A program made the translations under genes and the position numbers. Below are positions 368 to 23,954 of a DNA stretch of 64,000 nt, piece by piece. The DNA is from Alphaproteobacteria bacterium (GTDB lineage Bacteria; Pseudomonadota; Alphaproteobacteria; JASGCL01), in the NCBI GenBank assembly GCA_965262605.1, contig CBDHFN010000003.1:7222-71221 (forward strand), in the 5' to 3' direction. How positions within the stretch are numbered: the first letter of the stretch is position 1; every line of letters begins with the position of its first letter. The notes under the pieces were generated by a model that saw only the letters and a program-made list of their open reading frames with translations, made no database searches and was not told the DNA's origin.

Positions 368-3300
368 TCAAGCCAATTTTGCCGAATTTTCCACAATAAC
401 AGGATGCGGTAATTTATGCAAAACTTCAAAAGGCACCACCATTTTTATTTGCGTCATGGTGGTTTGCCAATTTGCCAATAAAGATTTACCCCAATTGGAA
501 TTTGTCGCTTGAATATGCAATTCAAGCAAAGATTTTGCGTGATTTTGCCAATATGGCGTGCTTAAATCATAATAATCAACGCATTGGCGATTGATTTTCT
601 TGCCAAGCTTTTGTTTATTATCCAAAATAAACGCAATACCGCCCGTCATGCCCGCCGCGAAATTATACCCGATGCGTCCCAGAATCATAACTTCGCCACC
701 CGTCATATATTCACAGCCGTTGGAGCCACAACCCTCAACCACGCTGATAGCCCCCGAATTGCGCACAGCAAATCTTTCGCCTGCTTGCCCAGCGGCGAAT
801 AAATAACCCTTGGTTGCCCCATAAAGGCAAGTATTGCCAATAATGCTGTTTTCATAGGTTAAAAGCGTGGAAGTTGCGGTTGGGCGAATCACCACCGAAC
901 CACCGCTTAACCCCTTGGCGACATAATCATTGGCTTCACCAATTAGCTCAATATGCATACCACCGACAATGAAAGCCCCCAGACTTTGCCCCGCGGTGCC
1001 CCGCAATTTAAGCTCAATATGTTTGGGTTGCAAGGCATTCATGCCATATTGCCGTGTGATTGAAGATGCTAGCTTAGTGCCAATCGCGCGGTCGGTATTG
1101 ACAATATTATATTCCAAATGGCATTTTTCACGGGTTGTGAATAATTTATGCGCATCGGCAATAATTTTATCGTCAAGATTTTTGGGCAATTCATTACGAA
1201 ATACCCGCGATTTCTTGGCAAAATCAATATTATTATGGGCTTTTGCCAATAAAGGATTTAAATCCAGACTATCAAGATATTGTTCGGTTTCGTGGTTGCG
1301 CACGACTTGTTGCAATAATTCCGTGCGCCCAATAATATCATGCAAATATTTAAAGCCCAAATGCGCCAAAATTTCGCGAACTTCGGTGGCAATAAAGCTA
1401 AATAAATTCACAACTTTTTCGGGCGTGCCGTTGAATTTTTCCAATAATTTTGGATCTTGGGTGCAAACGCCGACGGGGCAAGTATTAGAATGGCACTGAC
1501 GCACCATCAAGCACCCCATGGCAATTAACGAAGCCGTGCCGATGCCGTATTCTTCCGCACCTAAAATCGCGGCAATCACCACATCGCGCCCAGTTTTAAT
1601 ACCGCCATCAGTGCGCAAAACCACTTTATCGCGCAAATTATTCAAGCATAAAACCTGATGCGCTTCGGCAAGCCCCAATTCCCAAGGCAATCCCGCGTAT
1701 TTAATGGAAGATTGCGGCGATGCGCCCGTGCCACCACTATGACCCGAGATTAAAATCGCATCGGCTTTTGCCTTAACCACGCCCGCGGCGATAGTGCCAA
1801 TGCCAGACCTTGCGACTAATTTAACGCAAACGCGCGCTTCGGGGTTAATTTGTTTTAAGTCATAAATTAACTGGGCTAAATCCTCAATACTATAAATATC
1901 ATGATGCGGTGGCGGGCTGATAAGCGTGACACCTTCGGTGGAATGGCGTAATTTCGCGATAATCGCCGAAACTTTAAAGCCGGGCAATTGCCCGCCTTCA
2001 CCGGGTTTTGCGCCTTGCGCCATTTTAATTTCTATCTCATCACAATTATTAAGATATTCCGCCGTAACCCCAAAACGCCCCGAAGCAATTTGCTTAATCG
2101 CGCTGCACGCATTATCACCATTGGCGCGGGGTTTATATCGTTCGCTATCTTCGCCACCTTCGCCGCTATCCGATTTTGCGCCGATGCGATTCATGGCGAT
2201 TGACAAAGTTTCATGGGCGATGGGCGATAAAGCCCCTAAGCTAATGCCCGGTGAAATTAATCGTTTGCGAATATCGGTGATGGATTCAACTTCTTCAACC
2301 TTTACATTCGCGCCCGATGGTTTAAATTTCAATAAATCGCGGATATGAATCGCGGGTAAATCATAAATCATTTGCGAATATTTGCGAAATAACGCATATG
2401 AATCACGCGTGACCGCGCTTTGCAACATATGGATTGATTCGGCTTCCCAAGCGTGCGATTCGGCGGATTTACGGTATCGGTAAAATCCTCCAATCGGCAA
2501 TGTGCCTGAATATTGCTCAATCGTCTCATAATGATTTTTAAGCAATTGTTGCAAGCCCGTAATGCCTAAACCAGAAATTCGGCTGATAAGACCCGGAAAA
2601 AATTCATTGACCAACGCCCTTGAAAGCCCGATGGCTTCAAAAATATAGCCACCGCGGTATGAACTTATGATGGAAATACCCATTTTGGACATAATTTTCA
2701 ATAAACCATCATCAAGCGATTTTTTATAATTATCAAGCGCCCGTTCCACAGAAATCTTACCCAATAACCCGCGTTCATGCCTGTCTATAATAGTTGCAAC
2801 CGCAAGATTCGGGTTAATTGTTGTCGCGCCAACCCCGATTAAAACCGCAAAATGATGCACATCAAGCGCATCATCGCAACGGATATTAATGCTGGTATAT
2901 GACCTTAAACCCTCTTTACTTAGGCGTGTATGCACGGCGGCGGCGGCTAAAATCATCGGCACAGGGTATAAACCGCAAGCTTCGGGAATTTGGGTGTTAT
3001 CCAAAATAATATACGGATTTTTTGCCAAAGCCGCTTCAAAAGCATTTTCAGAAATTTCTAAAATCGCTTGGCGTAAGCCATTGGGATTGGCGGGATTATA
3101 TAAACATTGAATTTCAATCGCGTCTTTGCCCATCCATTGCCGCAATTTAGCATATTCATCGTCCATTAAAATCGGTGATTGCAATTCCATAAAATCTAAT
3201 TGCCCTTTGGCTGCAAGGCTATTACCCATGTTATTAAGCCTCGTTGCTAGGCTCATTACATGGCGTTCGCGCAATGAATCAATCGGCGGATTGGTGACTT

Positions 3301-4903
3301 GGGCAAAATTTTGCCGAAAAAAATGATGCAAACCGCGGTAAACTCCCGCCAAAACTGCCAAAGGCGAATCATCGCCCATGGATCCCGTGGCTTCTTTACC
3401 TTCCAGCGCCATGGGTTGCAAAATTAATTCGCAATCTTCCATTGTCCAACCCGCAATTAATTGCCGATTAATTAAATCTGTTTTGGTTATTTTGGGCGCA
3501 GGTTTCGTGGCGGGTAATTCTTTGATATTATGAATTTGTTTAATCCAATCAGCATAAGGATTTGCACCAGCAACCATAGATTTTAATTCTTTATCATGAT
3601 AAAATTTACCTTTGGCAAGGTTAATGCCAATCATCTGCCCCGGTCCGACTTTACCGCGCATACGCAAATCACTTTCGCGATATTTCACCATGCCCGTTTC
3701 CGAACCGACAACTAATAAATCATCATTCGTAATTGCATATCGTAATGGGCGCAAGCCGTTTCGGTCTAAACAAGCCAGCACCCAATTACCGCCGACCGCG
3801 CAAATTGCCGCAGGACCGTCCCATGGTTCCCAAGACGAATGGGCATAGCGATAAAATGCTTTGAGATTCGTTGCCATATCGGCGGCTTCTTCCCATGCTT
3901 CGGGCATTAATAATGATTTAATTTCGGGCAAATCGCGGCGCGAATGCAAGTTAATTTCAAAAACATTATCTAACGCCCCTGAATCGGAGACATTGGGCAT
4001 GATAATCGGTAAAATATCCTTCATATTGCCAAATTTATCGTCTTCAAGTCGTTGTTCGCGGTTGCGCATCCAATTAATATTGGCGGATAAGGTATTAATT
4101 TCGCCGTTATGCGCAATGACGCGAAAGGGTTGCGCCAACGCCCAGCTTGGAAAAGTATTCGTGGAATAGCGTTGATGATACACCACGAAATTTGAAATAA
4201 ACCGCGCATCGCATAAATCAGGATAAAAAATATCCAATTGTTCGGCTAAAAACAACCCTTTATAAATGATGGAACGGCTTGAAAAAGAACAAATATAGGC
4301 TTCTAGCAAGTTTTCTTCAAGGAATTTTTTTTCAATTTTACGCCGTATGACATATAATTCGGTTTCAAATTCCTCTTCGGTAAGGTTTTTCGTGTTGTTA
4401 ATTAAGATTTGTTCAATTTCTGGGCGGGTAGAATTGGCTTTATCGCCGATGACGCCCGTGTTAATCGGCACTTGGCGCCAACCATAAATTTGATAGCCTT
4501 TGCGAATAATTTCAGATTCAATAATGACGCGGGTGCGCTCTTGGGCATCTAAATTAGTGCGTGGTAAAAATACCATGCCAATCGCAAATTTATTATTGGG
4601 CTGTTCAATACCCAACGATTTAATATAATCCATAAAAAATTCTTGGGGAATTGCCAAATGAATGCCCGCCCCATCGCCAGTTTTACCATCGGCATCAACC
4701 GCGCCCCTGTGCCATAATGCTTTAAGCGCATCAATGCCATATTGCACGACCGCGCGGGTGGCGTGCCCCTTGATATTCGCAATTAAACCAACCCCGCACG
4801 CCGATTTCTCATATTGCGGTAAATACATGCCATTTTTTGCCAAATTTTGGGCATCTTGGTAAATATTGCCAAAATTTTCTGTGTTTAATGGTTTGTTTTT
4901 CAT
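368..4903 (-). CDS. gltB: glutamate synthase (NADPH) large subunit
   Basis: 1511 aa. N-terminal amidotransferase region with the CGVG catalytic-Cys motif after a short propeptide, and FMN/Fe-S and GXGXG domains typical of GltB. Confidence 0.95.
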   Translation of the reverse strand: MKNKPLNTENFGNIYQDAQNLAKNGMYLPQYEKSACGVGLIANIKGHATRAVVQYGIDALKALWHRGAVDADGKTGDGAGIHLAIPQEFFMDYIKSLGIEQPNNKFAIGMVFLPRTNLDAQERTRVIIESEIIRKGYQIYGWRQVPINTGVIGDKANSTRPEIEQILINNTKNLTEEEFETELYVIRRKIEKKFLEENLLEAYICSFSSRSIIYKGLFLAEQLDIFYPDLCDARFISNFVVYHQRYSTNTFPSWALAQPFRVIAHNGEINTLSANINWMRNREQRLEDDKFGNMKDILPIIMPNVSDSGALDNVFEINLHSRRDLPEIKSLLMPEAWEEAADMATNLKAFYRYAHSSWEPWDGPAAICAVGGNWVLACLDRNGLRPLRYAITNDDLLVVGSETGMVKYRESDLRMRGKVGPGQMIGINLAKGKFYHDKELKSMVAGANPYADWIKQIHNIKELPATKPAPKITKTDLINRQLIAGWTMEDCELILQPMALEGKEATGSMGDDSPLAVLAGVYRGLHHFFRQNFAQVTNPPIDSLRERHVMSLATRLNNMGNSLAAKGQLDFMELQSPILMDDEYAKLRQWMGKDAIEIQCLYNPANPNGLRQAILEISENAFEAALAKNPYIILDNTQIPEACGLYPVPMILAAAAVHTRLSKEGLRSYTSINIRCDDALDVHHFAVLIGVGATTINPNLAVATIIDRHERGLLGKISVERALDNYKKSLDDGLLKIMSKMGISIISSYRGGYIFEAIGLSRALVNEFFPGLISRISGLGITGLQQLLKNHYETIEQYSGTLPIGGFYRYRKSAESHAWEAESIHMLQSAVTRDSYALFRKYSQMIYDLPAIHIRDLLKFKPSGANVKVEEVESITDIRKRLISPGISLGALSPIAHETLSIAMNRIGAKSDSGEGGEDSERYKPRANGDNACSAIKQIASGRFGVTAEYLNNCDEIEIKMAQGAKPGEGGQLPGFKVSAIIAKLRHSTEGVTLISPPPHHDIYSIEDLAQLIYDLKQINPEARVCVKLVARSGIGTIAAGVVKAKADAILISGHSGGTGASPQSSIKYAGLPWELGLAEAHQVLCLNNLRDKVVLRTDGGIKTGRDVVIAAILGAEEYGIGTASLIAMGCLMVRQCHSNTCPVGVCTQDPKLLEKFNGTPEKVVNLFSFIATEVREILAHLGFKYLHDIIGRTELLQQVVRNHETEQYLDSLDLNPLLAKAHNNIDFAKKSRVFRNELPKNLDDKIIADAHKLFTTREKCHLEYNIVNTDRAIGTKLASSITRQYGMNALQPKHIELKLRGTAGQSLGAFIVGGMHIELIGEANDYVAKGLSGGSVVIRPTATSTLLTYENSIIGNTCLYGATKGYLFAAGQAGERFAVRNSGAISVVEGCGSNGCEYMTGGEVMILGRIGYNFAAGMTGGIAFILDNKQKLGKKINRQCVDYYDLSTPYWQNHAKSLLELHIQATNSNWGKSLLANWQTTMTQIKMVVPFEVLHKLPHPVIVENSAKLA

Positions 4904-4904
4904 G

Positions 4905-6404
4905 CTATTCTCCTATGGTAAGTAATTTTTTTACTTTACCCGGCTGGGCAAAGCTCATGGTGCCGTTCATGGCAAAAGATTGGAAATATCGTTTAACCGC
5001 GGGCATGGTGATTTGATTGAAAATGCTTTTGGCTAAGCGGTAATCGTCAAACGCCATAAAACATTGTAATGATTGATTGGCTTGAAATTTACCATCAAAT
5101 AATTGCGGATTAAATTCATTCGCGCCATATGCTTGCCAAATTATTTTATATGGTTGAAAATTATATTTGCCAACCCCCAGCAAAGCCCACCAATGATTGC
5201 GCCTTATCATATTTTGAATAATAACGCCCTTGCGGTTTTTTAAAACGCCTTGATGCTTTTGATAAAAATTATAACAAAGTGGATATTCGGCAAGCTGCTC
5301 CATAGAAATTACTTTGCCATTTTTTTGATACGGCAAAAATACCCATTTTTCTTCGTTTAATTCAGGTGCCTTAAAATTTTCTTTGGTTAATAACGGATAT
5401 AAATATTTTTTGGGAATCGGCACATTTTGAATTTTTTCATTGGACATTAAATAATAATCGTCATTGGCGTGCAAAGATTTTTTATTGAAAAAATATAAAT
5501 AATTGGCACCACAAGTATTTAACCCTTGGCGTGGCATCGCCGATTTTGGAATATGAATCGCATTCATGACATTTTTATCGTGAAAATAATGCAACGCATC
5601 ACCATGTTTATTAAGCGGGTTTAAATATTGTATTTCGTAATTATCTTGGCTGGTTTTAATAAAGGCTTTAATGGGGTAAATTTGTGTTTTATTATTTTGA
5701 AAATAATAAAATCCGCATCGGGTATTAATACCTTTAAATGGGGAAAAACCGCCAAAATCATGAATTTCCATTAAGCAATAATCGCCTTGATTGCCATGAA
5801 ATTCGCGAAATTTTTGTTGCGCGCCATCATTATAAATCAGCGATAAAGGCGCGAAAAAATACGCCTTGCCATTGGGTTTACAATGCGATTGTATAGATTT
5901 TTGCATGATTAAAGCCGCAATATCAATGCGCGATTTCCCCATTAACATATCGCGGCGATTTTTAATTAAATCATGGTCAAAATACACTGATTTTAAAATT
6001 TCTTTGTAATTATTAGGTAAATCATTAAAATTAAGCCATGGCGGGTTGCTTAGAATAATATCAAATTTTTTATCGTGAAAATTGCAAATAAAATCTTGGT
6101 GCCAAAAATTTTCGCGCGGTAAATTTATATTATAAATCTGGTGAAATTTAACGAATGTTTTGGCGAATAATTCGCCGTCTAATTCCACGCCAAACAAGCG
6201 ATTAATCGGTAAATTTTCCAATCGCACCCCTTGGTTTAGGGCAACCTGCACGAGTGCTTGCAAAAGATTACCCTCGCCCATGGTTGGGTCAAATACTGAC
6301 GCGCCATTAAGCCAATCTTTGGCAATATCATATTTTAAGACAAATTCCATGGCGCAATCCAAAGGAGTCATTATTTGCCCAATTTTATGATTGATATTTT
6401 GCAT
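4905..6404 (-). CDS. gamma-class N6-adenine DNA methyltransferase (Eco57I/TaqI-like), stand-alone
   Basis: 499 aa with motif I-like FDPTMGEGNLL and catalytic motif IV NPPW (ILSNPPWLNF). The N-terminal GQIMTP motif is typical of this MTase clade. No nuclease domain and no adjacent REase. Confidence 0.75.
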   Translation of the reverse strand: MQNINHKIGQIMTPLDCAMEFVLKYDIAKDWLNGASVFDPTMGEGNLLQALVQVALNQGVRLENLPINRLFGVELDGELFAKTFVKFHQIYNINLPRENFWHQDFICNFHDKKFDIILSNPPWLNFNDLPNNYKEILKSVYFDHDLIKNRRDMLMGKSRIDIAALIMQKSIQSHCKPNGKAYFFAPLSLIYNDGAQQKFREFHGNQGDYCLMEIHDFGGFSPFKGINTRCGFYYFQNNKTQIYPIKAFIKTSQDNYEIQYLNPLNKHGDALHYFHDKNVMNAIHIPKSAMPRQGLNTCGANYLYFFNKKSLHANDDYYLMSNEKIQNVPIPKKYLYPLLTKENFKAPELNEEKWVFLPYQKNGKVISMEQLAEYPLCYNFYQKHQGVLKNRKGVIIQNMIRRNHWWALLGVGKYNFQPYKIIWQAYGANEFNPQLFDGKFQANQSLQCFMAFDDYRLAKSIFNQITMPAVKRYFQSFAMNGTMSFAQPGKVKKLLTIGE

Positions 6405-6409
6405 GGTAT

Positions 6410-7840
6410 TTACGCAACCCTTGCCGCTGTTTGCAAGGCTTGATTAATGTATTTTTTAATGCCCAAGGCGGCATTTTTGCCATCTTTTATGCCCCAAACA
6501 ACCAATGAAGCCCCGCGCACAATATCACCCGCGGCAAATACGCCCGATAAATTTGTTGCGCCCGCGCTGTTTTTAACGGCAATTGTGCCATTTTTATTAA
6601 CGGCTAATTCAGGTTGATTAAATAAACGCGGCATATCTTCGGCTTCAAAGCCTAACGCCATAATAACTTTATCGCACGCAATAGTTCGTTCAGACCCCTC
6701 AATCGCGACAACCGATTGACGACCATCAGCGGAATCGCTTGTCAAGCGCATATTGGTAATTTCAATGGAGTTTACTTTATCAACCCCCAAAAATTTCACG
6801 GGCGCGCTTAACCAAATAAATTCTACGCCTTCGTCCATAGCATTTTGCACTTCGCGGTCGGAACCGGGCATGTTTTCGCGATCGCGCCGATAAAGGCAGA
6901 TAACTTTTTTCGCGCCTTGGCGAATGGCGGTGCGCACGCAATCCATCGCCGTATCACCACCGCCAACAACCACAATATTTTGTCCTTTGGCATTTAGTGA
7001 TTCATTAGGGGCAATTTTATCGCCTAAATTATCGCGATTAGCTTGCACCAAAAAATCAAGGGCTTGGATAATATTTTTTAAATTATGCCCCGCCACATCC
7101 GATTCGCGTTTTTTATACACGCCAGTTGCAATTAATACGGCGGAATATTCAAGGCGCAATTTTTGAAAATCATCGCCAATATCATGATTAAGTTGAAATT
7201 TTACCCCCGAATCCCTAAGCCATTGGGTGCGTTTTGCGATAATTTCTTTGTCTAGTTTGAAATTAGGAATGCCATAAATCATTAAACCACCCACGCGGTC
7301 GTATTTATCATAAACCACGACTTGAAAGCCAAATTTGCGTAAATCCGCCGCCGCCGCAAGCCCCGCAGGACCCGCGCCAATGATAGCGATTTTTTCTTTG
7401 CGTTCATTTTGGGGTTTTATCGGTTTTACCCAACCTTGTGCCCATGCGGTATCGGTAATATATTTTTCCACCGAACCAATGGTAATATAGCCATGCCCCG
7501 ATTGTTCTATGACGCAATTTCCTTCGCATAATCGGTCTTGGGGGCAAATGCGCCCGCAAACTTCGGGAAAAACATTGGTTTGCGATGATAATTCATATGC
7601 TTCTTGTAAGCGACCTTCGGCGGTAAGCATCAGCCAATCAGGGATATTATTCGCCAAAGGGCAATGAATTTGACAAAATGGCACACCGCATTGTTCGCAC
7701 CGACCCGCTTGTTCGGCGGCAGTTTTATCGTCATATTTTTCCGATATTTCATGGTAATTTTTTTTGCGCTCAAGGGCGGAAGCCTTCATCGGCAATAATT
7801 GCTGGCGATTAACGAATTGAGTCATTTTAGCGGTAGTCAT
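6410..7840 (-). CDS. gltD: glutamate synthase small subunit
   Basis: Fe-S Cys clusters (CEQCGVPFC, CPQDRLCEGNC) and FAD/NAD Rossmann motif IAIIGAGPAGLAAA. Start chosen at MTTAKM (7840), which has an AAGGA Shine-Dalgarno 8 nt upstream; the track ORF extends to 7891. Confidence 0.9.
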   Translation of the reverse strand: MTTAKMTQFVNRQQLLPMKASALERKKNYHEISEKYDDKTAAEQAGRCEQCGVPFCQIHCPLANNIPDWLMLTAEGRLQEAYELSSQTNVFPEVCGRICPQDRLCEGNCVIEQSGHGYITIGSVEKYITDTAWAQGWVKPIKPQNERKEKIAIIGAGPAGLAAAADLRKFGFQVVVYDKYDRVGGLMIYGIPNFKLDKEIIAKRTQWLRDSGVKFQLNHDIGDDFQKLRLEYSAVLIATGVYKKRESDVAGHNLKNIIQALDFLVQANRDNLGDKIAPNESLNAKGQNIVVVGGGDTAMDCVRTAIRQGAKKVICLYRRDRENMPGSDREVQNAMDEGVEFIWLSAPVKFLGVDKVNSIEITNMRLTSDSADGRQSVVAIEGSERTIACDKVIMALGFEAEDMPRLFNQPELAVNKNGTIAVKNSAGATNLSGVFAAGDIVRGASLVVWGIKDGKNAALGIKKYINQALQTAARVA

Positions 7841-8005
7841 AATTTTTCCTTTTTGATGATTCGTGCATTCACCATAATAAATAAATTGCAAAAATCTAGA
7901 TAAAAAGTGATTTATTTCAATTTAATTGACAAAAAAAATTTGTTTAAGGCAGAAAAATAACTTTTTTTAAACTAATATAAAATTATTATCAATATAGTTG
8001 ACAAA

Positions 8006-8761
8006 CTATATTAATGCCCGCATTTGCAAAGCCTGAAATTCGCTGGTGGGGATTTGCGCCACTAAAATATCATAAATTTCTTGCTCATCGCGTTTTAAAA
8101 ATTCGCTTAATAATTGCAATTCTGCTAAGGACATCGCCGATAAATGCGCAATAAAAACTTGATTCATCATTAAATCAATTTCTTTGGTGCCACGATGCTG
8201 GGCGCGAAAGGTAATTTTTTTAATGGTTTTTTGATAATTATCATCAGGGCAATCTTCGCGACCACAAAAAAATTTTTGTCCATTGGAATATATAAAATAT
8301 TCGCCGTTTTCGCCCTTTGCATGGGCGACTAAATCATAAAAAACATTGCGGTTGCATCGCAACCATAAATTATCGCGCACCCGCACCAAAGGCTTGGGTT
8401 CATCGTGGTTATTTAATAAAATAAAAGGCTGCTCGGCGGTAATTTCAACCCAAAAATCTAAATTCGTGCGAATTAAAATTTTTTCATCGCTTATATCGGC
8501 TTCTACGCCGATAAATGGCGTATCTTCAACGATTATTTTACCCTTTTCAAAGGGCGTTGCCAAAAAATAATCGTTGGCTTCGCGAATCAGGCAAACCGCA
8601 AATAATTGCGCTAATTTTAAGCGTCCAATCGGGGAATTTTGATAATACCATTGCCCATTTTTATCAATTTTAATGGCAAAATCACCACAAACTGGCGGGT
8701 ATGAAACACCACTTAACCCCTTGCCCAAAGCCATTAATGAGGCAAAATCGGGCTTTGCCAT
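8006..8761 (-). CDS. DUF1285-family conserved alphaproteobacterial protein
   Basis: 251 aa with the PPVCGDF...DGxWxYxxSPIGR pattern recalled for DUF1285. Start overlaps the hfq stop (TAATG). Confidence 0.5.
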   Translation of the reverse strand: MAKPDFASLMALGKGLSGVSYPPVCGDFAIKIDKNGQWYYQNSPIGRLKLAQLFAVCLIREANDYFLATPFEKGKIIVEDTPFIGVEADISDEKILIRTNLDFWVEITAEQPFILLNNHDEPKPLVRVRDNLWLRCNRNVFYDLVAHAKGENGEYFIYSNGQKFFCGREDCPDDNYQKTIKKITFRAQHRGTKEIDLMMNQVFIAHLSAMSLAELQLLSEFLKRDEQEIYDILVAQIPTSEFQALQMRALI

Positions 8762-9003
8762 TACGAATCACAATCATCATCATCGTCTAAATTTAAATTT
8801 TCGGTGGGCATGATGGTTGAAATTGCATGTTTATAGACTAATTGCGATTGACCATCGCGTTTTAGCAAAATACTGAAATTATCAAACCAAGTAACATTAC
8901 CTTGAAGCTTGACCCCATTCACTAAGAAAATAGTAACTGCCACCTTTAATTTTCGTGCTTGATTTAAAAATAAATCTTGCAAATTTTTCTTCTCCTGCGC
9001 CAT
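8761..9003 (-). CDS. hfq: RNA chaperone Hfq
   Basis: 80 aa. Sm1/Sm2 motifs ([13 protein letters not shown]...FDNFSILL...[13 protein letters not shown]). Unusual acidic C-terminal tail DDDDDCDS. Confidence 0.9.
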
Positions 9004-9338
9004 AATATTCCTTTTGTTGATTGGTTTTTTTAATGTAATTTTCGGCGATAAGTTTATAAAACTGATTCTTTTATCATTTGCAAGTATTATTTTAATTTTA
9101 TGGTAATTTATTTATACGCCATGATTACTGATTAAAATTAGGGAATAAAATTTTACTTGCATTTTAAACAATTATGATGGCGTAGCATGAAGGAATAGCA
9201 ACGCGGCGCGGAAATAAGGATTAATGCAACAAACTAAAAATACTGATTTTTTAGAAAAAACTCAAAATAAACCCAAAATAGCATTTTAAGCTTTACTTTG
9301 TGAAAGAATCTTTTTATTTTTATTTTGAGGAGTAAAAT

Positions 9339-10484
9339 ATGGCAGAAAATTTAATTTGGGATTTAAAGCATTCCAATTCTGAAGACAACGAGCAAAATAA
9401 AAAAAAATTACAGAATTTTTTATTAGCCAAGAATCTTGTTTGCTTGCTGGGTAGTGGCGCGTCTTTTGGGAAATTTAAAAATGATACCCAAAATACATTT
9501 CCAAGCATGGGTGAATTATTGGAAGCTATTAAAAGTAAAACCGAATTACTTGAAAATTTTAATAAAATTGCAGTTAAAGAGAAAAAGTTAAATGATGAAA
9601 AAAATCTTGAAGTTTTATTATCAAAAATCTCCCAATTATCGGTTCATGATGATATTAAAAAGGAAGTTGAAAATTATATTAATGAAGTAAAATGTTTAAT
9701 CACAACAATGTGCACTAAAACTATAAATTTTGAAGGTGAATCTAAAGAAATTCCACCCCACCTTGAATTTTTACGCAAATTACATAAACGCGGCAGTGGC
9801 AAAGATCGGTTGAAAATTTTCACCACAAATTATGATACATTAATTGAGCAAGCCGCCGCCGAACAAAATATCGTGATTATTGATGGTTTTTCTTTTACCA
9901 GCCCACGAAAATTTTCACCCCGAAATTTTAAATATGATATTATTCAAACCGAATCCAATTACCAAAAAAATCAACCGATTTATAATTTAATAAAATTATA
10001 TAAAATACATGGTTCAGTTAATTGGCAAGAAGAAAATCATGAAATAATTCAAAAAGAAAATCCCAATAAACCATGTATAATATACCCATCTTCCACAAAA
10101 TATCAATTATCTTATCAAAAACCATATTTTGAAATGATGAGCCAGTTTAATAATGCAATGGCGACCGAAGAAACTTGTTTATTGGTAATTGGATTTAGTT
10201 TTAGTGATGACCATATTTTCAGTGCGATTAAAAATGCCTTAACTCAAGACACAACATTTAAAATGATTATTGTCGCGCCAGATTTAATAAAATCAGATAA
10301 AGAAGAAAAATATCCAAATTTATCAAAATTAAAAAAAATTGCCTTAAAAAATGAGCAATTATTTCTAATTAATGCAACATTTAAGCAATTTGCAAATGCA
10401 ATTCCCAAATTTAATGATGCGGATACCGAATCACAAAAACTTGAACTTATATCAAAAATTTTAGACGCAAAAAATGACAAATAA
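9339..10484 (+). CDS. SIR2-like NAD+-hydrolase, partner of the HerA ATPase (SIR2-HerA defense module)
   Basis: 381 aa. N-terminal glycine loop LLGSGASFG, FTTNYDTLIEQA (catalytic-Asn motif of defense-type SIR2 domains), and LYKIHGSVNW (HG catalytic-His motif). Strong GAGGAG Shine-Dalgarno. Very AT-rich. Confidence 0.75.
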   Translation: MAENLIWDLKHSNSEDNEQNKKKLQNFLLAKNLVCLLGSGASFGKFKNDTQNTFPSMGELLEAIKSKTELLENFNKIAVKEKKLNDEKNLEVLLSKISQLSVHDDIKKEVENYINEVKCLITTMCTKTINFEGESKEIPPHLEFLRKLHKRGSGKDRLKIFTTNYDTLIEQAAAEQNIVIIDGFSFTSPRKFSPRNFKYDIIQTESNYQKNQPIYNLIKLYKIHGSVNWQEENHEIIQKENPNKPCIIYPSSTKYQLSYQKPYFEMMSQFNNAMATEETCLLVIGFSFSDDHIFSAIKNALTQDTTFKMIIVAPDLIKSDKEEKYPNLSKLKKIALKNEQLFLINATFKQFANAIPKFNDADTESQKLELISKILDAKNDK

Positions 10485-12174
10485 AGACCATCAACAAATT
10501 TTTATTGAAAAATTATATATTGGTAAAATTACCAATATTACTTATTCCAAGGTTGAATGCGTGATTGATTATAACCCATCAAACAAAACCACCACGCATT
10601 TTGGTAATCAATATATGTCGGGTTCGGTTGGTGAATATATCGTTATTGAACATGAATATCTTGCAATTTTGGGGCAGATATATGCCATAAATCTTGAAGA
10701 ACGAGAAAAAAATTATGATGATAGCCAAGCATTAAAACCACGCGTTTCAATACAATTATTAGCAACTTATTATTGGCTTGAAGATAAATTACAAGCTGGA
10801 ATCAAGGAATCACCAAGAATAAGCGAAAAAATTTATTCCGCGCCCAATTGGTTTTTAAATAAACTAACCAATTTAATCAATGACAAAAATGAAAATGGAA
10901 AGATAACGCTTGGCAAATTAAGCAAAGGCGTAGATGGTATGGTGGAATTTCCATGGCAGGCATTATTTGAAAGGCATTGTGCAATTTTGGGGGCAACGGG
11001 GGGTGGCAAATCATATAGTGTTGCAAAAATTATTGAAGAATTAATAAAATTAAATGATGCTGAAGCACCAAATATTTTATTATTGGACGCGACAGGGGAG
11101 TATCAAAAATTTAAAAGGAAAAATAAATATATACTTGGCGAAGATTGTTTTTTAAATTATGCAAATTTTAATGATAATGATTTTATGGCATTATTTAGTC
11201 CAGCACCAAATATTCAAACACCGATATTTATTGAAGCAATAAAAAGTCTTAAAGCAGTTGCATTTGCCAAAAGACAATCAGTAAATCCATTGCAGGAATA
11301 TATAAAAGATAGTGGCGACAATTCCCTACTATTTAAGAGAAATAAAAATAAGCAATTTTATATTAATTTTTTAAAAGAAATAGAAAGTAGCGAGTATGTT
11401 AACAACCCAAACAGCCAGTATGATGTAAATAAATTACCTGATCAAATTCAATTAGAATGCATTTTTGATTCTAATAGGAATGATAATGATAAAGATAATT
11501 TTAAATTTTGGGGTGATATTAATAATAATTCCTTAGTATTTTGCACTACTCTAATTTTAAGAATTAGAAGTTTTCTTATGGCAGAATACACTAAAAAAAT
11601 ATTTCAAAGCAATGATGATAATAATATTTTTAATTTATTAAAGAAAGACAAAGGTAAAATAAATAAACTAACCCATATTTCCCTTAAAGAAGTATCATAT
11701 GAATTTCAAATGCGTGAAATTATAGTCAATTGTATTGCCCGTAAATTATTAACAATGGCACGCGAAGGCAAATTTCAACAAAAACCTTTAATAATTTTCA
11801 TTGACGAAGCCCATAATTTTATCGGTAAAAAAGCAGGAGGCGGTGAAAATAGATTTCCCTTAGATGCGATTGAAATTATTGCCAAAGAGGGGCGAAAATA
11901 TGGCTTGCATTTATGTTTGGCAACACAACGACCCGCCGATTTACCCGATGGAATTATTAGTCAAATGGGTTGTATGCTAGTTCATCGCTTAACAAATGGC
12001 GCAGACCGCGAAAAAATTGAACGGGCAAGCAATGACATTGACCGCGAAACTGCCCGCAATTTACCATCTTTGATTGCGGGTGAAGCGATTATAGCAGGCG
12101 TTGGCTTTCCATTCCCAATGACTATTCAAATGGACAAACCTAAAAATTGCCCAGAGTTTAAAGCAAATTCATAA
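10474..12174 (+). CDS. HerA-like (DUF87/FtsK-HerA superfamily) ATPase/helicase, SIR2-HerA module partner
   Basis: 566 aa. Beta-rich N-terminal region, Walker A ILGATGGGKSYSV, Walker B LIIFIDEAHNF (DEAH), and downstream LATQRPADL (TQRP motif typical of HerA). 11-nt overlap with the upstream gene. Confidence 0.75.
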   Translation: MTNKDHQQIFIEKLYIGKITNITYSKVECVIDYNPSNKTTTHFGNQYMSGSVGEYIVIEHEYLAILGQIYAINLEEREKNYDDSQALKPRVSIQLLATYYWLEDKLQAGIKESPRISEKIYSAPNWFLNKLTNLINDKNENGKITLGKLSKGVDGMVEFPWQALFERHCAILGATGGGKSYSVAKIIEELIKLNDAEAPNILLLDATGEYQKFKRKNKYILGEDCFLNYANFNDNDFMALFSPAPNIQTPIFIEAIKSLKAVAFAKRQSVNPLQEYIKDSGDNSLLFKRNKNKQFYINFLKEIESSEYVNNPNSQYDVNKLPDQIQLECIFDSNRNDNDKDNFKFWGDINNNSLVFCTTLILRIRSFLMAEYTKKIFQSNDDNNIFNLLKKDKGKINKLTHISLKEVSYEFQMREIIVNCIARKLLTMAREGKFQQKPLIIFIDEAHNFIGKKAGGGENRFPLDAIEIIAKEGRKYGLHLCLATQRPADLPDGIISQMGCMLVHRLTNGADREKIERASNDIDRETARNLPSLIAGEAIIAGVGFPFPMTIQMDKPKNCPEFKANS

Positions 12175-12297
12175 AAAAATGCAACAAACTATTTTATAAT
12201 TTCAATGATTATACGACTAACGCCTATATAACATATAAATTTTAATAAAATTCTTAAAATTATTATAACGCATAAGCGCAATTTATATACCAATTAA

Positions 12298-13662
12298 TCA
12301 ACGCGCTATAAATCTTGCGGCGATGGTTGCTTGTGAGCCATTGGCGCAATTAAGGGTAAAATTAAAATCATTAATCGGTTCTAAATTTTGGGCGGGTGCA
12401 TACAAGAAAATTTTAAATTGGCTAATATCATCGGCGATTAAACGCAATAAAAATGCTGATTTCGCCGCGCCATTTTGTATAAAAACAGCATTTTCCATTT
12501 CATTTATTGACAAAATACAATCAATTTCGGTGCTGGATTTATTCATGATTTTAATGGTATAACCATTGCGTATGCCGCCATCTTTGGTAAGCACGAATAA
12601 GGGGTTGCGGTCATGTTCGGCGGAAAATTCTAAATTGCTTCGGGTGGCAAAATATAATAAAATTGCCAAACCGCCAAGAATCCATAAAAAACTATAAATA
12701 TAAAACCGCCAATGATGATAAAAATATCGTTTATTTTGCGAAATTTGTGATGAGATATTATGGTTATTATTATAATCAATTAACCCCAAAGGCTTGTGAA
12801 TTTTTGTCATTACCGAATTGCACGCATCAATGCAAAGCGCGCAAGTAATGCAGCCCAATTGCTGACCATTGCGAATATCAACACCCGTGGGGCAAACCGC
12901 CACGCATAAGTCGCAATCTATACAATCGCCTTTATCCGTACCTTTACCACGCGGTTCGCCGCGTTTTTCGTCATAAACCACAATTGACGATAAATTATCC
13001 AGCATCGCGCCTTGAATACGGGGCCAAGGGCACATATAAATACAGACTTGTTCGCGTAATAAACCGCCAAAAATATAAGTTGTTAAAGTCAAAATCATTA
13101 TCGCAATATAGGCTTGATAAGCGGCATCGCCGCGAATTAATTGCCCCAAAAGACTTGGCGCATCGGCAAAATAAAAAACCCACGCCCCACCAGTCGCCAC
13201 CGATGTAATTAACCAAAGCCCGTGTTTAAGGCTTCGTTTGCTGATTTTTGCGAAATTATAAGGCGATGAATCTAGTTTCATGCGTGAATTTCTGTCGCCT
13301 TCAACGATTGTTTCAATTTTTAAAAATAAATCCACCCAAACTGTTTGCGGGCAAGCATAACCGCACCATGCACGCCCAACCGCCGAAGTGATTAAAAACA
13401 GCCCCAAACCCGCCATAATTAACAAGATAGCCGCAATAAATAATTCATGCGACCATAATTCAATGCTTAAAAAATAAAATTTTCGGTTTGCTAAATCAAC
13501 TAAGAATGCTTGGTTAGGCGCGTTTTCGCCCCGATTCCACCGCAACCACGGCGCAATATAATAAACCGACAAGCAAAATATTAAAATGATATTTTTTATA
13601 TTGCGAAATTTGCCTTTAATGGGTTGCGGGAAAATTTTGACTCGTTTCGCAAATAAATTCAT
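12298..13662 (-). CDS. ccoG: cbb3-type cytochrome oxidase accessory protein CcoG/FixG (4Fe-4S ferredoxin-type)
   Basis: AWCGYACPQT hallmark and two 4Fe-4S cysteine motifs (CIDCDLCVAVCP, CITCALCIDACN). Overlaps the ccoP stop. Confidence 0.85.
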   Translation of the reverse strand: MNLFAKRVKIFPQPIKGKFRNIKNIILIFCLSVYYIAPWLRWNRGENAPNQAFLVDLANRKFYFLSIELWSHELFIAAILLIMAGLGLFLITSAVGRAWCGYACPQTVWVDLFLKIETIVEGDRNSRMKLDSSPYNFAKISKRSLKHGLWLITSVATGGAWVFYFADAPSLLGQLIRGDAAYQAYIAIMILTLTTYIFGGLLREQVCIYMCPWPRIQGAMLDNLSSIVVYDEKRGEPRGKGTDKGDCIDCDLCVAVCPTGVDIRNGQQLGCITCALCIDACNSVMTKIHKPLGLIDYNNNHNISSQISQNKRYFYHHWRFYIYSFLWILGGLAILLYFATRSNLEFSAEHDRNPLFVLTKDGGIRNGYTIKIMNKSSTEIDCILSINEMENAVFIQNGAAKSAFLLRLIADDISQFKIFLYAPAQNLEPINDFNFTLNCANGSQATIAARFIAR

Positions 13663-14531
13663 TCGCCGCCGCCCAATTCATGAATATAAATCGCGACTTG
13701 TTTTAATTGCACGGGCGTAAGCACATCACCCCACGCGCGCATTTGCCCTTGACGGCTTTTGCTGATAGTTTCAATGATGCTTGATTGTTTTTTGCCATAT
13801 AACCAAATGGCATCGGTTAAATTGGGCGCGCCAATTTCGCGATTGCCCGTTGCTTTTTCACCATGGCAAGCCGCACAATTATCGGCGAAAATTTTCTTGC
13901 CATTTTCGGATTTACCCGTTACGATTGGCGATTGCGAAAGGTTTAACACGAAAGCGGATACATCGGCGATTTGCTGGGGGTTTAAAATCCCGTCCGTGCC
14001 AAACGCGGGCATTTGCGAATCGCGCGCTTTGGCATGTCCCGACCTTACGCCATATTGAATTGTTTGGTGAATTTCTTCAATTTTACCGCCCCATAACCAA
14101 TCATCATCTAATAAATTTGGGAATCCAATATTGCCTTGTGCGCCATCATTATGGCATTGCGTGCAATTAAGCGCGTATATTGATTTACCCGCGGCTATAC
14201 TATATTGGCGAAGTGGTTCATCATGCAGAATTTCTTGAAAATTGGCTTGGATAATTTTGCCGTCAATCACGGACTTTGCTTGGGCATCTTGGGCGATTTC
14301 GGCATTTAAATTAGCGCGATTCGTGCTTGCCAATAAGCCTGTGCTATTGCCGTGAATTAAGGGAAGCGACGGATATAAAATACAATAAACAACCGCAAAA
14401 ATTATCGTTGCGTATAATGTCCATAACCACCATCTGGGAATCGGTGCATCATATTCGGTAATGCCGTCCCAATCATGCCCCGTTGTGTTTTGCGCTTCGG
14501 TTTTATGGTCTTTATCGTGCATGTTAATCAT
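13659..14531 (-). CDS. ccoP: cbb3-type cytochrome c oxidase subunit III (diheme cytochrome c)
   Basis: Two CxxCH heme-binding sites (CTQCH, CAACH) after an N-terminal TM helix. Confidence 0.9.
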   Translation of the reverse strand: MINMHDKDHKTEAQNTTGHDWDGITEYDAPIPRWWLWTLYATIIFAVVYCILYPSLPLIHGNSTGLLASTNRANLNAEIAQDAQAKSVIDGKIIQANFQEILHDEPLRQYSIAAGKSIYALNCTQCHNDGAQGNIGFPNLLDDDWLWGGKIEEIHQTIQYGVRSGHAKARDSQMPAFGTDGILNPQQIADVSAFVLNLSQSPIVTGKSENGKKIFADNCAACHGEKATGNREIGAPNLTDAIWLYGKKQSSIIETISKSRQGQMRAWGDVLTPVQLKQVAIYIHELGGGE

Positions 14532-14679
14532 CCTTTAAGATTGATTGGTTGATTTTATCGTAAATTTTTTTTGAATTTGGGCGAAAAAATACAAATAAAC
14601 TGGCAATCATATAAAACACCCCAAGGGAAATTAAACCCCAAGAATCCGCAAAATGCCGTAATTGTTCATATTTATCCAT
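14524..14679 (-). CDS. ccoQ: cbb3-type cytochrome oxidase subunit CcoQ (small single-TM protein)
   Basis: 51-aa frame MDKYEQLRHFADSWGLISLGVFYMIASLFVFFRPNSKKIYDKINQSILKDD found by hand between ccoO and ccoP, the conserved ccoQ position. Below the ORF-track size cutoff. Confidence 0.5.
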   Translation of the reverse strand: MDKYEQLRHFADSWGLISLGVFYMIASLFVFFRPNSKKIYDKINQSILKDD

Positions 14680-14681
14680 AT

Positions 14682-15404
14682 TTACCTGTTATTTTCTGTT
14701 TCATTATATTGTGAAAAATCAACTAAACTGCCTAACATTTGCAAATACGCAATTAACGCGTCCATTTCAGTGATTTTATCTTGATTATCAAAATTGCGAA
14801 TTTGTATTGCACCATAGCGCGATTGTAAGTCTTTGCTGGGTTTATTAGGGTCAGCTTGCGCTTCTAAATCTGCCAAAGCATTATCAATCATGGCATCAGT
14901 ATAAGGCACGCCGATAATTTTTTGCGCTTTAAGATGATCTTTAATATCGTCATAGCTTAATTTATTATGCGTCAAAAATTGATATGGTGGCATGATGGAC
15001 CCGGGCACGCTTTGGGCGGGATTGGATAAATGCGCAATATGCCATTCATCAGAATATTTTTTACCCACGCGGGCTAAATCTGGACCCGTGCGCTTTGAAC
15101 CCCATTGAAACGGATGATCATACATGGATTCCGCCGCCAAAGAATAATGCCCATAGCGATCAACTTCATCGCGAAGCGGGCGAATCATTTGGCTATGGCA
15201 ATTATAGCACCCCTCACGGATATAAATATTGCGCCCCGCCAATTCAAGCGGTGTATAAGGGCGAATGCCCGATATTTTTTCAATGGTATTATCCAAATAA
15301 AACAACGGCACAATCTCCACTAAACCCCCAATTAACACGGTAATTAACGAAAAAACCAATAATAATGAAGCATTTTTCTCAATAAATTGATGGGAAAATT
15401 TCAT
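14682..15404 (-). CDS. ccoO: cbb3-type cytochrome c oxidase subunit II (monoheme)
   Basis: N-terminal TM helix plus CYNCH heme-binding motif. Position between ccoN and ccoQP. Confidence 0.9.
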
Positions 15405-16972
15405 GATATTGCTCCTCTTTGCTGGGAATCCGTGGTGATAGTTTTAATAAGATTATATGCCATAATTAACGCCCCACTTAAATATAACAAGCCACCAAAC
15501 GCCCGCAATATATAATATGGCTGAATATGCGCAATAGTTTCCACAAAACTATATTGCAAAAAGCCAAGCTTATCATAACTACGCCACATTAAGCCTTGCG
15601 AAATTCCGCTGACCCACATGGAAGACGCATAAAATACAATGCCAATTGTTGCCAACCAAAAATGAATATTGACAAGATTTAAGCTAAAAACTTCTTTTTT
15701 GCCGTATAATTTGGGCACTAAATAATATAAAACCGCAAAGGAAATTAAACCATTCCAACCCAAAGCTCCCGAATGCACATGCCCAATCGTCCAATCTGTA
15801 TAATGGCTTAGGCTATTGACAGATTTAATGGACATTAACGGACCTTCAAATGTTGACATGCCGTAAAATGCTAACGAAGCGACAAACATTTTAATTATCG
15901 GGTCGGTGCGCAATTTATGCCATGCGCCTTGCAAAGTCATTAAGCCATTTAACATACCGCCCCAGCTTGGCATCCAGAGCATTACCGAAAATACCATGCC
16001 CAAAGTTTGCGCCCAATCAGGCAAAGCCGTATAATGCAAGTGATGGGGTCCCGCCCAAATATACATAAAAATCAAACTCCAAAAATGCACGATTGACAAT
16101 CGGTATGAATAAATCGGTTGCCCGATGCGTTTGGGCACAAAATAATACATCATGCCCAAAAATCCCGCAGTCAAGAAAAAACCAACCGCATTATGCCCAT
16201 ACCACCATTGGGTTAAGGCATCTTGCACGCCCGCAAATAACCCATATGATTTTGACCCCAAGAAAGAAACAGGCACAGCTAAATTATTGACTAAATGCAA
16301 TAAAGCCACGGTGACGATGAAGGCTAAATAAAACCAATTCGCAACAAAAATATGGGGTTCCTTGCGTTTTAATATTGTGCCTAAGAACACTAATAAATAA
16401 GCCACCCAAACTATTGTCAGCCAAATGTCAACATACCATTCAGGTTCGGCATATTCTTTGCCTTGGGTTGCACCCATTAAATATCCAGTTGCGGCAAGAA
16501 TAATAAAAACTTGATACCCCAAAACCACAAACCAAGCTAATCGCCCCAGTGCTAATTTTGCTTGGCAAGTGCGCTGGACAACATAAAATGAACTGGCAAT
16601 TAAAATATTGCCACCAAAGGCAAAAATTACCGCCGAAGTATGCAAGGGGCGCAACCTGCCGAAATTGGTAAATTCATAACCAAAATTAAGCACGGGGAAG
16701 GCTAATTGCAAGGCGATTATTAAGCCAACCAAAAATCCCGCAAGCCCCCAAAATAAAGTAGCCCAAACACCAAAGCGAATTGGGTCGTCAAAATATAATT
16801 CGTCCTTAATATTTTGCGGATTTAAACCATAAATAACCCAACCCAAAGCCAAAGCCATAATAATACCACCATGCACCCGAAATGCCGTGTCATGCCCAAG
16901 CCCAGCCATAATAATGCCAATTATCCCCGCCACAACGGCAAACGCAATTGATGTAATACGCCAATTTGTCAT
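15401..16972 (-). CDS. ccoN: cbb3-type cytochrome c oxidase subunit I
   Basis: 523 aa, polytopic, with the His-rich heme-copper oxidase subunit I signature (HxxLxxxGG, WxGPHH). Confidence 0.95.
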
Positions 16973-17664: not shown

Positions 17665-18480
17665 TTAAATTAAATATATAAAAAAATCATGGTCTTGGCA
17701 AAATTTTTCGCATTCGGCTTCTTGCATTAAATTGCCTAAATGTGTGAAAAATACGCCAGCAATACCAATTTCTTGCATGGATTTCAACGATTCTAAGCCT
17801 AAGGTTGGTAAGTCCAAAGCCATTGATTGCCCCGATTTACAATTTTTTACCATAATGGGTTTTTCGCCATTTTTAATTAACCCGCCCATGCGGTTAATCA
17901 AGCCTTGCGTGCCTTCGCAAGCCTCAATCCCAAGCACTAAATTTTGCTGCATAATAATTGCTTGCCCAATATCAAATGGGCTTAAAGTTTTTAAGATTTC
18001 TTGCCCATATTGCGCAGATTTTATTTGTTCTGGACTGGGTTTTTTGCCCGCCCAAAGCCCAATTTTGCGCTGAATTTGCAAGGCTTGATTGGGTGATTGC
18101 CATTCAACGCCAGTTTTATCGGTGATAAAATTGGTCAAAAGCTTTAATAATCCATCATCGCCTTTTAAAAACGCCATGGCATTTTGTTTCAAAAATTCCT
18201 TGCCCATAGTATCAATATGCTTAATTTCATTCAAGCTTGGACGGCGAATATCGCCCGCCATGATAGCAATTTTCGCGTCAATTTTGGTAATTAATTGGCA
18301 TAATTTTCCCAATTCGCCCAAATGCAATTTTATATGGGGAATTGCTTGCCATTCATCAGCATATGCAATGCCATGCAATAAAATCGCATGACAAGGTTGG
18401 CAATGGCGCATAATTTGAATCGGCAAAACCCCTTGCCCCGCCACGATAATTTTTACTAAATTAGTCATCTTTGGCTTCAA
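17665..18480 (-). CDS. lpxI: UDP-2,3-diacylglucosamine pyrophosphatase LpxI (DUF1009)
   Basis: Matches the LpxI pattern ([10 protein letters not shown]; [23 protein letters not shown]; DLPTLGLE) and lies downstream of lpxA, as in other alphaproteobacteria. Confidence 0.75.
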
Positions 18481-23679: not shown

Positions 23680-23830
23680 TTAGGTAATTACGAAATTAAT
23701 AATACAAATTTTTTTTACTAAGTCAAGTAATATCAAATTTAAGTTTCATGAAAAAAAATCTTTATTTTAAAAAATAAATCTGCTAATATAAATATTAAAG
23801 TTTGTTGCATTAAGAATTTTACAAAGCAAT

Positions 23831-23920: not shown

Positions 23921-23954
23921 TTAATGCTACAAACTTATTAGGATTTTTAAATAT

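Follow-up and report, generated by a model that had tools for sequence, protein, structure and literature searches.

A predicted SIR2-HerA antiphage gene pair between hfq and the cbb3 oxidase genes of an alphaproteobacterium

Analysis of a 64,000-nucleotide (nt) stretch of contig CBDHFN010000003.1 from an alphaproteobacterium (assembly GCA_965262605.1; hereafter the window) revealed, at positions 9339-12174, two overlapping genes which very probably make up an intact SIR2-HerA antiphage module of two genes that was acquired horizontally, as judged from sequence, structural models and analogy with studied systems. An earlier reading made from the DNA letters alone (the sequence-only reading) had proposed membership of this antiphage family, and PADLOC profiles, predicted fold, catalytic residues and gene pairing support that proposal. 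By its predicted domains, catalytic residues, pairing and modeled fold, the locus belongs to the SIR2-HerA family. The family is already known, and nothing known on SIR2-HerA is changed by the present copy.

The SIR2 and HerA proteins and their genes

The first gene (9339..10484, + strand, ATG start) encodes a predicted SIR2_2-type NAD+-cleaving (NADase) effector of 381 amino acid residues (aa), and the second (10474..12174, + strand, ATG start) a predicted HerA-type ATPase of 566 aa, both assignments being drawn from the list of open reading frames (ORFs), Pfam, PADLOC, the Protein Data Bank (PDB) and Foldseek. The two ORFs share 11 nt (10474-10484), with the HerA ATG lying within the end of the SIR2 gene, exactly at the coordinates claimed by the sequence-only reading, and all SIR2 and HerA motifs quoted in it were located in the translations.

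In the SIR2 protein, these motifs are GSGAS at residues 38-42 (glycine loop G38-S42), TTNYD at 162-166 and HGS at 224-226, and N164, D166 and H224 were assigned by alignment as the catalytic residues. The Pfam model SIR2_2 (PF13289) was matched with an expectation value (E) of 6.8e-16 (59.1 bits versus a cut-off of 24.5), and the PADLOC SIR2 model PDLC04075 with 2.7e-79 over residues 13-375; PADLOC models of the Aga_SIR2 group also matched, more weakly (1e-26 to 1e-28). Its sequence matches in the PDB, namely 8yhx_G, 8j4u_A and 8w9l_A, are chains of SIR2-HerA complexes. Retention of the catalytic Asn and His, on which the sequence-only reading had made its case depend, was established by alignment with the Staphylococcus aureus protein SaSir2, whose N226 and H287 align with N164 and H224, respectively. 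The H287 mutant of SaSir2 loses its NADase activity (PMC11514289), and the catalytic residues of PsSIR2 are N163/D165/H212 (PMC11472057). In an alignment with 53 SIR2 homologues, all 31 invariant columns were kept, with N164, D166 and H224 among them. The AlphaFold2 model, with a predicted local distance difference test score (pLDDT) of 87.1, has an N-terminal helix at residues 14-28. Its top 38 Foldseek matches were all Sir2 chains of SIR2-HerA complexes, with E down to 7e-21 and a template modeling (TM) score of 0.71, followed by ThsA, KomBC and SPARSA at 1e-9 or weaker, ThsA being 11 orders of magnitude weaker. No CxxC zinc ribbon was found in the SIR2 protein, whose cysteines are at positions 35, 119, 125, 246 and 280, and the protein is therefore not a canonical sirtuin. 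The candidate identity of a sirtuin deacetylase (CobB/Sir2) was ruled out, since PF13289 was the only family matched and the Cys4 module of the zinc ribbon is absent.

The HerA protein possesses a Walker A motif GATGGGKS at residues 173-180 (including K179), a Walker B motif IFIDEAH at 441-447 (including D444/E445) and a TQRP motif at 484-487. Two Pfam models, DUF87 (3.6e-23, 83.3 bits) and HerA_C (2.6e-08, 33.4 bits), were matched above their gathering cut-offs, and the HAS-barrel model gave a marginal match below its cut-off (E 0.025). The PADLOC HerA model PDLC04103 covered residues 1-564 with an E-value of 2.7e-141; at E-values of 1e-79 for SIR2 and 1e-141 for HerA, the similarity to these models goes beyond chance. 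Sequence matches in the PDB (8wiv, 9c1m, 8yho and 8xau) belong to SIR2-HerA and DUF4297-HerA complexes, and the Sulfolobus repair HerA 4d2i is also among the matches, by both sequence and fold. The Walker A lysine K179 is the equivalent of HerA K173 in the system of PsSIR2, where the K173A substitution abolishes defence (PMC11472057). All 78 invariant columns of an alignment with 50 HerA homologues were kept, including K179 and D444/E445. The AlphaFold2 model (pLDDT 84.9) places beta strands across residues 15-122, within an N-terminal barrel region of approximately 12-122, in agreement with the beta-rich N-terminus that had been read from the sequence. In Foldseek, defence-related HerA proteins (E 8e-35 to 1e-28, TM ~0.7) stood ahead of the archaeal repair HerA, and those of SIR2-HerA and DUF4297-HerA systems scored alike. 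The profile searches and structure predictions proposed by the sequence-only reading as checks thus both came out in its favor: SIR2_2 and DUF87/HerA_C exceed the Pfam cut-offs, the PADLOC SIR2 and HerA models match over the full length of the proteins, and the confident structural models match solved SIR2-HerA complexes best.

The pair is preceded by a leader at 9237..9338 (+), delimited by reading of the sequence, in which a strong Shine-Dalgarno sequence, GAGGAG, is located at 9327-9332, 6 nt 5' of the SIR2 ATG. No separate Shine-Dalgarno sequence is present in the start-codon context of the HerA gene. The two genes probably form one transcript, and translation of HerA is probably coupled to that of SIR2 through the 11-nt overlap; the overlap itself, the location of the HerA ATG inside the SIR2 gene and the missing second Shine-Dalgarno sequence all fit such coupling.

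By analogy with the studied systems, HerA would act as an ATPase hexamer to which a two-layer ring of 12-14 SIR2 subunits is docked, contact being made between the HerA N-terminal barrel and the SIR2 N-terminal helix. The models of the window proteins hold both interface elements described for such complexes, namely the SIR2 helix 14-28 and the HerA barrel at ~15-122 (PMC11472057, PMC11514289). In the uninfected cell, the SIR2 NADase would be kept inactive, until a phage-derived cue activates the complex; SIR2 would then split NAD+ into ADP-ribose and nicotinamide, possibly with HerA-dependent ATPase or nuclease activities alongside, and the loss of NAD+ would stop growth of the infected cell and block phage multiplication (abortive infection). 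NAD+ depletion and an abortive-infection phenotype were reported for tested SIR2-HerA systems (10.1101/2021.12.14.472415; PMC13434337), and every tested system protects against phages (10.1101/2021.12.14.472415; PMC13434337; PMC11472057). For the window copy, we infer expression, complex assembly, NADase activity with NAD+ depletion, a trigger and a defence phenotype of the abortive-infection kind by analogy with these homologues.

Comparison with known systems and relatives of the pair

SIR2-HerA pairs were reportedly put forward as candidate antiphage systems by Gao et al. in 2020. Solved complexes include those of Escherichia coli (Nezha, 8J4U/8SU9), S. aureus (8YHX/8YHO) and Paenibacillus sp. 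453MF (8W9L/8WIV/8WLD). The window pair shares with them the two-gene layout with an upstream SIR2 gene overlapping HerA, the SIR2_2 fold with catalytic Asn, Asp and His, and a HerA in which an N-terminal barrel precedes a RecA-like core carrying both Walker motifs; their subunits are also its best matches by sequence and fold. Unlike them, it falls into another subfamily, defined by the PADLOC models PDLC04075/PDLC04103, for which no solved structure or biochemistry was found. The window proteins also differ in length: SIR2 has 381 aa, whereas several studied ones have 415-428 aa, and HerA has 566 aa compared to 610-696 aa in several studied ones (the S. aureus HerA has 562 aa). Identity with Nezha was ruled out, the 8j4u HerA being matched at only E 1e-14. 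A protein from an E. coli pair of the same clade has D213 as its invariant Asp, whereas the nickase residue of type III is D218.

Outside the SIR2-HerA family, the HerA subunits of DUF4297-HerA complexes (8XAU/8XAV, 8ZIQ and 9C1M) are equally close in fold (E 8e-35 to 4e-33, TM 0.68-0.72) and also in sequence, but their effector partner is a DUF4297 nuclease instead of the SIR2_2 NADase predicted here. Thoeris ThsA, SPARSA (SIR2-APAZ/pAgo) and DSR1/DSR2 share with the window protein the SIR2 NADase fold and, presumptively, the logic of NAD+ depletion. ThsA and SPARSA were nevertheless matched by Foldseek at only 1e-9 to 1e-7 versus 7e-21 for SIR2-HerA chains, and, in contrast to these systems, the window SIR2 has no SLOG, APAZ/pAgo or C-terminal DSR sensor domain and is partnered by HerA.

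The HerA clade of the window protein was represented by 88 independent loci, retrieved from metagenomes and viral contigs, and the gene upstream was counted in the 70 of them whose upstream sequence extends to 1150 nt or more. A SIR2 ORF lies directly upstream on the same strand in 69 of the 70, and the remaining locus has a truncated SIR2. Overlap is seen at 63 of 81 junctions, in most cases (52 of those 63) over 4 nt of the ATGA type; the 11-nt overlap of the window pair, unlike the usual 4 nt, is a rare variant of this normal geometry. Among the candidates examined, more than 2,300 HerA and more than 1,200 SIR2 homologues were found at E <= 1e-10, and HerA homologues occur on plasmids, satellites and chromosomes in many phyla; the subfamily that holds the window pair is thus large and abundant. 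The nearest relatives of the pair are 37-44% identical to it, which agrees with the description of this copy as divergent in the sequence-only reading, although defence-specific hidden Markov models detect it easily.

The closest relative, on contig JACCDX010318993.1 (locus L001), has a HerA 44% and a SIR2 40% identical to the window proteins, with the same gene order and overlap, and is also AT-rich (GC content 0.279 and 0.317) with GC-richer flanks. The E. coli pair of the same clade (locus L083; 38% identity) is flanked, within a P4-like satellite, by psu/ogr-delta on one side and the integrase on the other; this position is a recognised defence hotspot. Both relatives have the same best PADLOC SIR2 model as the window protein, PDLC04075 (6.9e-82 for the E. 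coli and 7.3e-71 for the L001 partner). HerA proteins of this clade were further found on 45 plasmids, mostly of Klebsiella and Acinetobacter, in one phage record and in about eight IMG/VR contigs. Whereas the pairs of the E. coli P4-like satellite and of Klebsiella and Acinetobacter plasmids are in mobile contexts, the window pair is located between core genes.

A type II N6-methyltransferase of 506 aa (PADLOC MTase_II, 7.9e-124) is encoded 2 nt after HerA in locus L001 (JACCDX010318993.1, 610-4948), and all three genes of that locus, SIR2, HerA and N6-methyltransferase, are AT-rich compared to their flanks. The window also contains a methylase ORF, at 4905-6404 (-), whose 499-aa product is of the Eco57I/N6_Mtase type. 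It is inserted between gltD (6410-7891), 5 nt away, and gltB (368-4903), 1 nt away, and has a GC content of 0.347 versus 0.44 in these neighbours. Its best PADLOC match spans positions 603-957 of the 1100 of a type IIG restriction-methylase, i.e., the methylase/target-recognition part, and, by sequence, it resembles an orphan methylase that lacks a nuclease domain. A three-gene unit including an Eco57I-type methyltransferase was considered and rejected, because the window methylase is just 22% identical to that of L001; among the 88 related loci, the L001 contig is the sole clear case of a similar methylase, with two weak matches besides.

Genomic position, composition and flanking repeats

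Read along the + strand, the order of genes is gltB, Eco57I-type methylase, gltD, a DUF1285/Sdh5 fusion, hfq, the SIR2-HerA pair, ccoG, ccoP, ccoO and ccoN. The pair lies on the + strand and all these neighbours on the - strand, so that transcription of the pair diverges from that of hfq and converges with that of ccoG. The flanking genes named by the sequence-only reading were confirmed by Pfam for hfq (8761-9003, -), ccoG (12298-13662, -) and ccoP (13659-14531, -). This reading had further placed the pair where alphaproteobacteria normally carry hflX or fixHIS, and only the latter part holds. In four alphaproteobacterial relatives examined, fixH-fixI-fixS directly follow ccoG (Pfam-confirmed in two), and in the window this place is taken by the 3' end of HerA. 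The place of hflX is a different one, since the pair is on the upstream (5') side of hfq; in alphaproteobacteria hflX is expected 3' of hfq, where the window has the DUF1285/Sdh5 fusion gene. The latter is a single ORF at 8006-8761 (-), with N- and C-terminal DUF1285 domains fused to an Sdh5/SdhAF2 'flavinator' domain, and has 1 nt in common with the hfq stop codon. The cbb3 cluster, ccoN-O-(Q)-P-G (12298-16972, -), is not followed by the usual fixH-fixI-fixS maturation genes, and none of the three was detected by tblastn in the 64-kb window.

The universal conservation at this site which the sequence-only reading had named as an argument against itself was not seen: in 80 alphaproteobacterial ccoG neighbourhoods (±10 kb), all from distant genomes, neither SIR2, HerA nor hfq was found near ccoG (0/80), and the pair is therefore not conserved at the ccoG position. 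The host is a deep-branching, small-genome alphaproteobacterium without a close sequenced relative, and the two proteins form singleton clusters, each known from a single 1.72-Mb contig. No integrase, transposase or tRNA gene was found near the pair, the whole window being free of tRNA genes, and Rfam models gave no match in the pair or near it.

The composition of the SIR2-HerA pair is foreign to the window. GC content is 0.282 in SIR2 and 0.316 in HerA, compared to 0.383 for the whole window. At third codon positions (GC3), SIR2 has the lowest value of the 48 ORFs (0.212, z = -2.6) and HerA a similarly low one (0.229, z = -2.3), against a mean of 0.356 and a standard deviation of 0.055. The pair had been described as visibly more AT-rich than both flanks, which is clear with respect to ccoGPON (GC 0.39-0.45) and modest with respect to hfq (0.337).

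The pair is bracketed by two exact copies of a 14-nt direct repeat, AATGCAACAAACTA, the left one at 9223..9236 (+), 103 nt upstream of the SIR2 ATG, and the right one at 12178..12191 (+), 4 nt past the HerA stop; the copies are 2955 nt apart. A 14-mer common to the two flanking intergenic regions arose by chance in 12 of 5000 mononucleotide shuffles (0.24%) and in 37 of 5000 Markov-1 shuffles (0.74%), and in a sliding control of the same geometry 14 nt were reached in 2 of 405 placements, one of them being the real site. This suggests that the AATGCAACAAACTA repeat marks the insertion boundary of a 2,955-bp unit. Such an interpretation is countered by the recurrence of the core ATGCWACAAACT elsewhere in the window as an inverted pair, at 23799-23810 (-) and 23924-23935 (+), 112 nt apart. 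The inverted pair stands just upstream of two abutting ORFs (23955-25040 and 25040-26113, +), which have low GC (GC3 of 0.237 in the second) and gave no Pfam or PADLOC match. When one mismatch was allowed, still four copies of ATGCWACAAACT were found in the window, a number reached in 1 of 100 shuffles, and all four core copies are intergenic. Around the AATGCAACAAACTA copies, no similarity beyond ~15 nt was detected of the kind expected from a miniature inverted-repeat transposable element or an attachment-site arm, and AATGCAACAAACTA was absent from all 177 fetched loci. The additional ATGCWACAAACT copies together with the lack of extended similarity make the insertion-boundary reading insecure, and the AATGCAACAAACTA/ATGCWACAAACT motif could represent a recurring site of regulation or of recombination. 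A more specific scenario, in which SIR2-HerA is a recombinase-less 2,955-bp defence cassette that entered by site-specific recombination at a short host motif, TTAATGCWACAAACT, appears quite unlikely; if true, it would point to integron-like or hotspot-like capture of foreign cassettes, served in trans, in a small alphaproteobacterial genome. The short flanking repeat could, in any case, inform how minimal defence cassettes move.

Weighing of the assignment and other features of the window

Several results weigh against the assignment of 9339-12174 as an acquired antiphage module. The NCBIfam models for antiphage proteins missed their cut-offs, both SIR2_antiphage (NF042942, 123.4 versus 500 bits) and HerA_antiphage (NF042943/NF042944, 130 versus 800 and 118.2 versus 850 bits, respectively); with scores so far below the cut-offs, the pair is related to these subfamilies and not a member of them. 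Identity to biochemically studied or solved SIR2-HerA proteins is ~20-25% in structural alignments, and SIR2-HerA subtypes share just 13-22% identity with one another (PMC13434337). These subtypes also differ in their enzymology: the S. aureus HerA is inactive as an ATPase (PMC11514289), and E. coli type III combines a nickase function of HerA with an ATP checkpoint and is triggered by T7 Gp2.5 and Gp5.9 (PMC13434337). For this reason, trigger and auxiliary chemistry are not transferable to the window copy. Promoter and terminator scans of 8700-12500 gave no excess over shuffles, and placement of a promoter in the leader 9237..9338 is inferred only, since the scan stood at shuffle level. Finally, the best ccoG matches, both from the genome collection and from a set of 5.8 billion proteins, are 51-54% identical, and the databases contain no close host relative that would reveal presence/absence polymorphism or an empty site.

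The first of these results also concerns annotation. As the NCBIfam equivalog cut-offs are missed, a general pipeline would probably apply to the genes the generic names that their homologues bear, 'SIR2 family protein' and 'ATP-binding protein'. The expectation of the sequence-only reading that the pair is likely to be overlooked is correct to this extent, but PADLOC-type models recognise the system at once. The locus adds a new member to a subfamily for which neither structure nor biochemistry was found, and it is mildly unusual in its recombinase-less insertion amid core genes with a bracketing repeat, its orphan host lineage and its 11-nt overlap.

The same findings may be read differently, namely as what is left of a defence island in a small genome, now silent or in decay, with ORFs that are open but unexpressed or no longer activatable. 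The contig is only 1.72 Mb long, no recombinase or further island genes adjoin the pair, promoter and terminator signals do not exceed chance, and HerA lacks a separate Shine-Dalgarno sequence, all of which would suit a relic. Decay is nonetheless decidedly unlikely, given that both ORFs are full length relative to the PADLOC models (13-375 of 381 and 1-564 of 566), all invariant family residues are kept, the GAGGAG sequence 5' of SIR2 is strong, and the family as a rule has overlapping junctions with no second Shine-Dalgarno sequence. We regard as very unlikely that the same predicted NADase and ATPase chemistry is selected here for self-stabilisation, as in an addiction module, or for exclusion of plasmids and other mobile DNA. 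Such a selfish function would be in line with the frequency of same-clade pairs on plasmids, their presence on a P4-like satellite, the compact, compositionally foreign and repeat-bracketed nature of the window pair, and the observation that in E. coli type III the triggers, proteins of the single-stranded DNA-binding (SSB) type and DNA ends, are not exclusive to phages (PMC13434337). It is opposed by the phage-protective, abortive-infection phenotype of all tested SIR2-HerA systems (10.1101/2021.12.14.472415; PMC13434337; PMC11472057), and the ORF list contains no antitoxin-like third gene. A housekeeping pair of a sirtuin deacetylase and a DNA-repair translocase of the archaeal HerA-NurA type, for which one could invoke the original role of HerA as a repair helicase, the weak NCBIfam matches to helicase_HerA and HerA_Thermprot and the presence of Sulfolobus HerA 4d2i among the matches, is extremely unlikely: the SIR2 domain is SIR2_2 (PF13289) without a CxxC zinc ribbon and not of the sirtuin deacetylase family, the neighbours are hfq and ccoG with no NurA, Mre11 or Rad50 partner adjacent, the two NCBIfam scores are far below threshold (84.5 versus 970 and 91.6 versus 800 bits, respectively), the composition is foreign, the pair is absent from the 80 alphaproteobacterial ccoG neighbourhoods, and its nearest homologue is 44% identical, compared to ~50% across the whole class for housekeeping genes of the same window. 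The acquired SIR2-HerA antiphage module is the favoured assignment.

Some other features of the window were recorded. An ORF at 32874-33662 (-) encodes a dCTP-deaminase-like protein of 262 aa (PF22769, 2.3e-18), which is presumably longer than the housekeeping Dcd; its GC3 of 0.217 (z = -2.55) is the second-lowest in the window, it had no PADLOC match, and it might be another foreign gene acting on nucleotides. Within an lpxD-fabZ-lpxA-lpxI cluster, fabZ and lpxA are apparently fused into one ORF (18461-19693, -; 410 aa) with FabA/FabZ-like, LpxA-type hexapeptide and acetyltransferase domains. The Rfam model PYLIS_3, the pyrrolysine insertion element of mttB, was matched at 34136-34235 (-) with 47 bits, above its gathering threshold. 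The match lies inside an uninterrupted ORF of the MttB family (33738-35276; Pfam MTTB, 2.5e-109) and probably reflects coding conservation in a non-pyrrolysine MttB homologue instead of a functional PYLIS.

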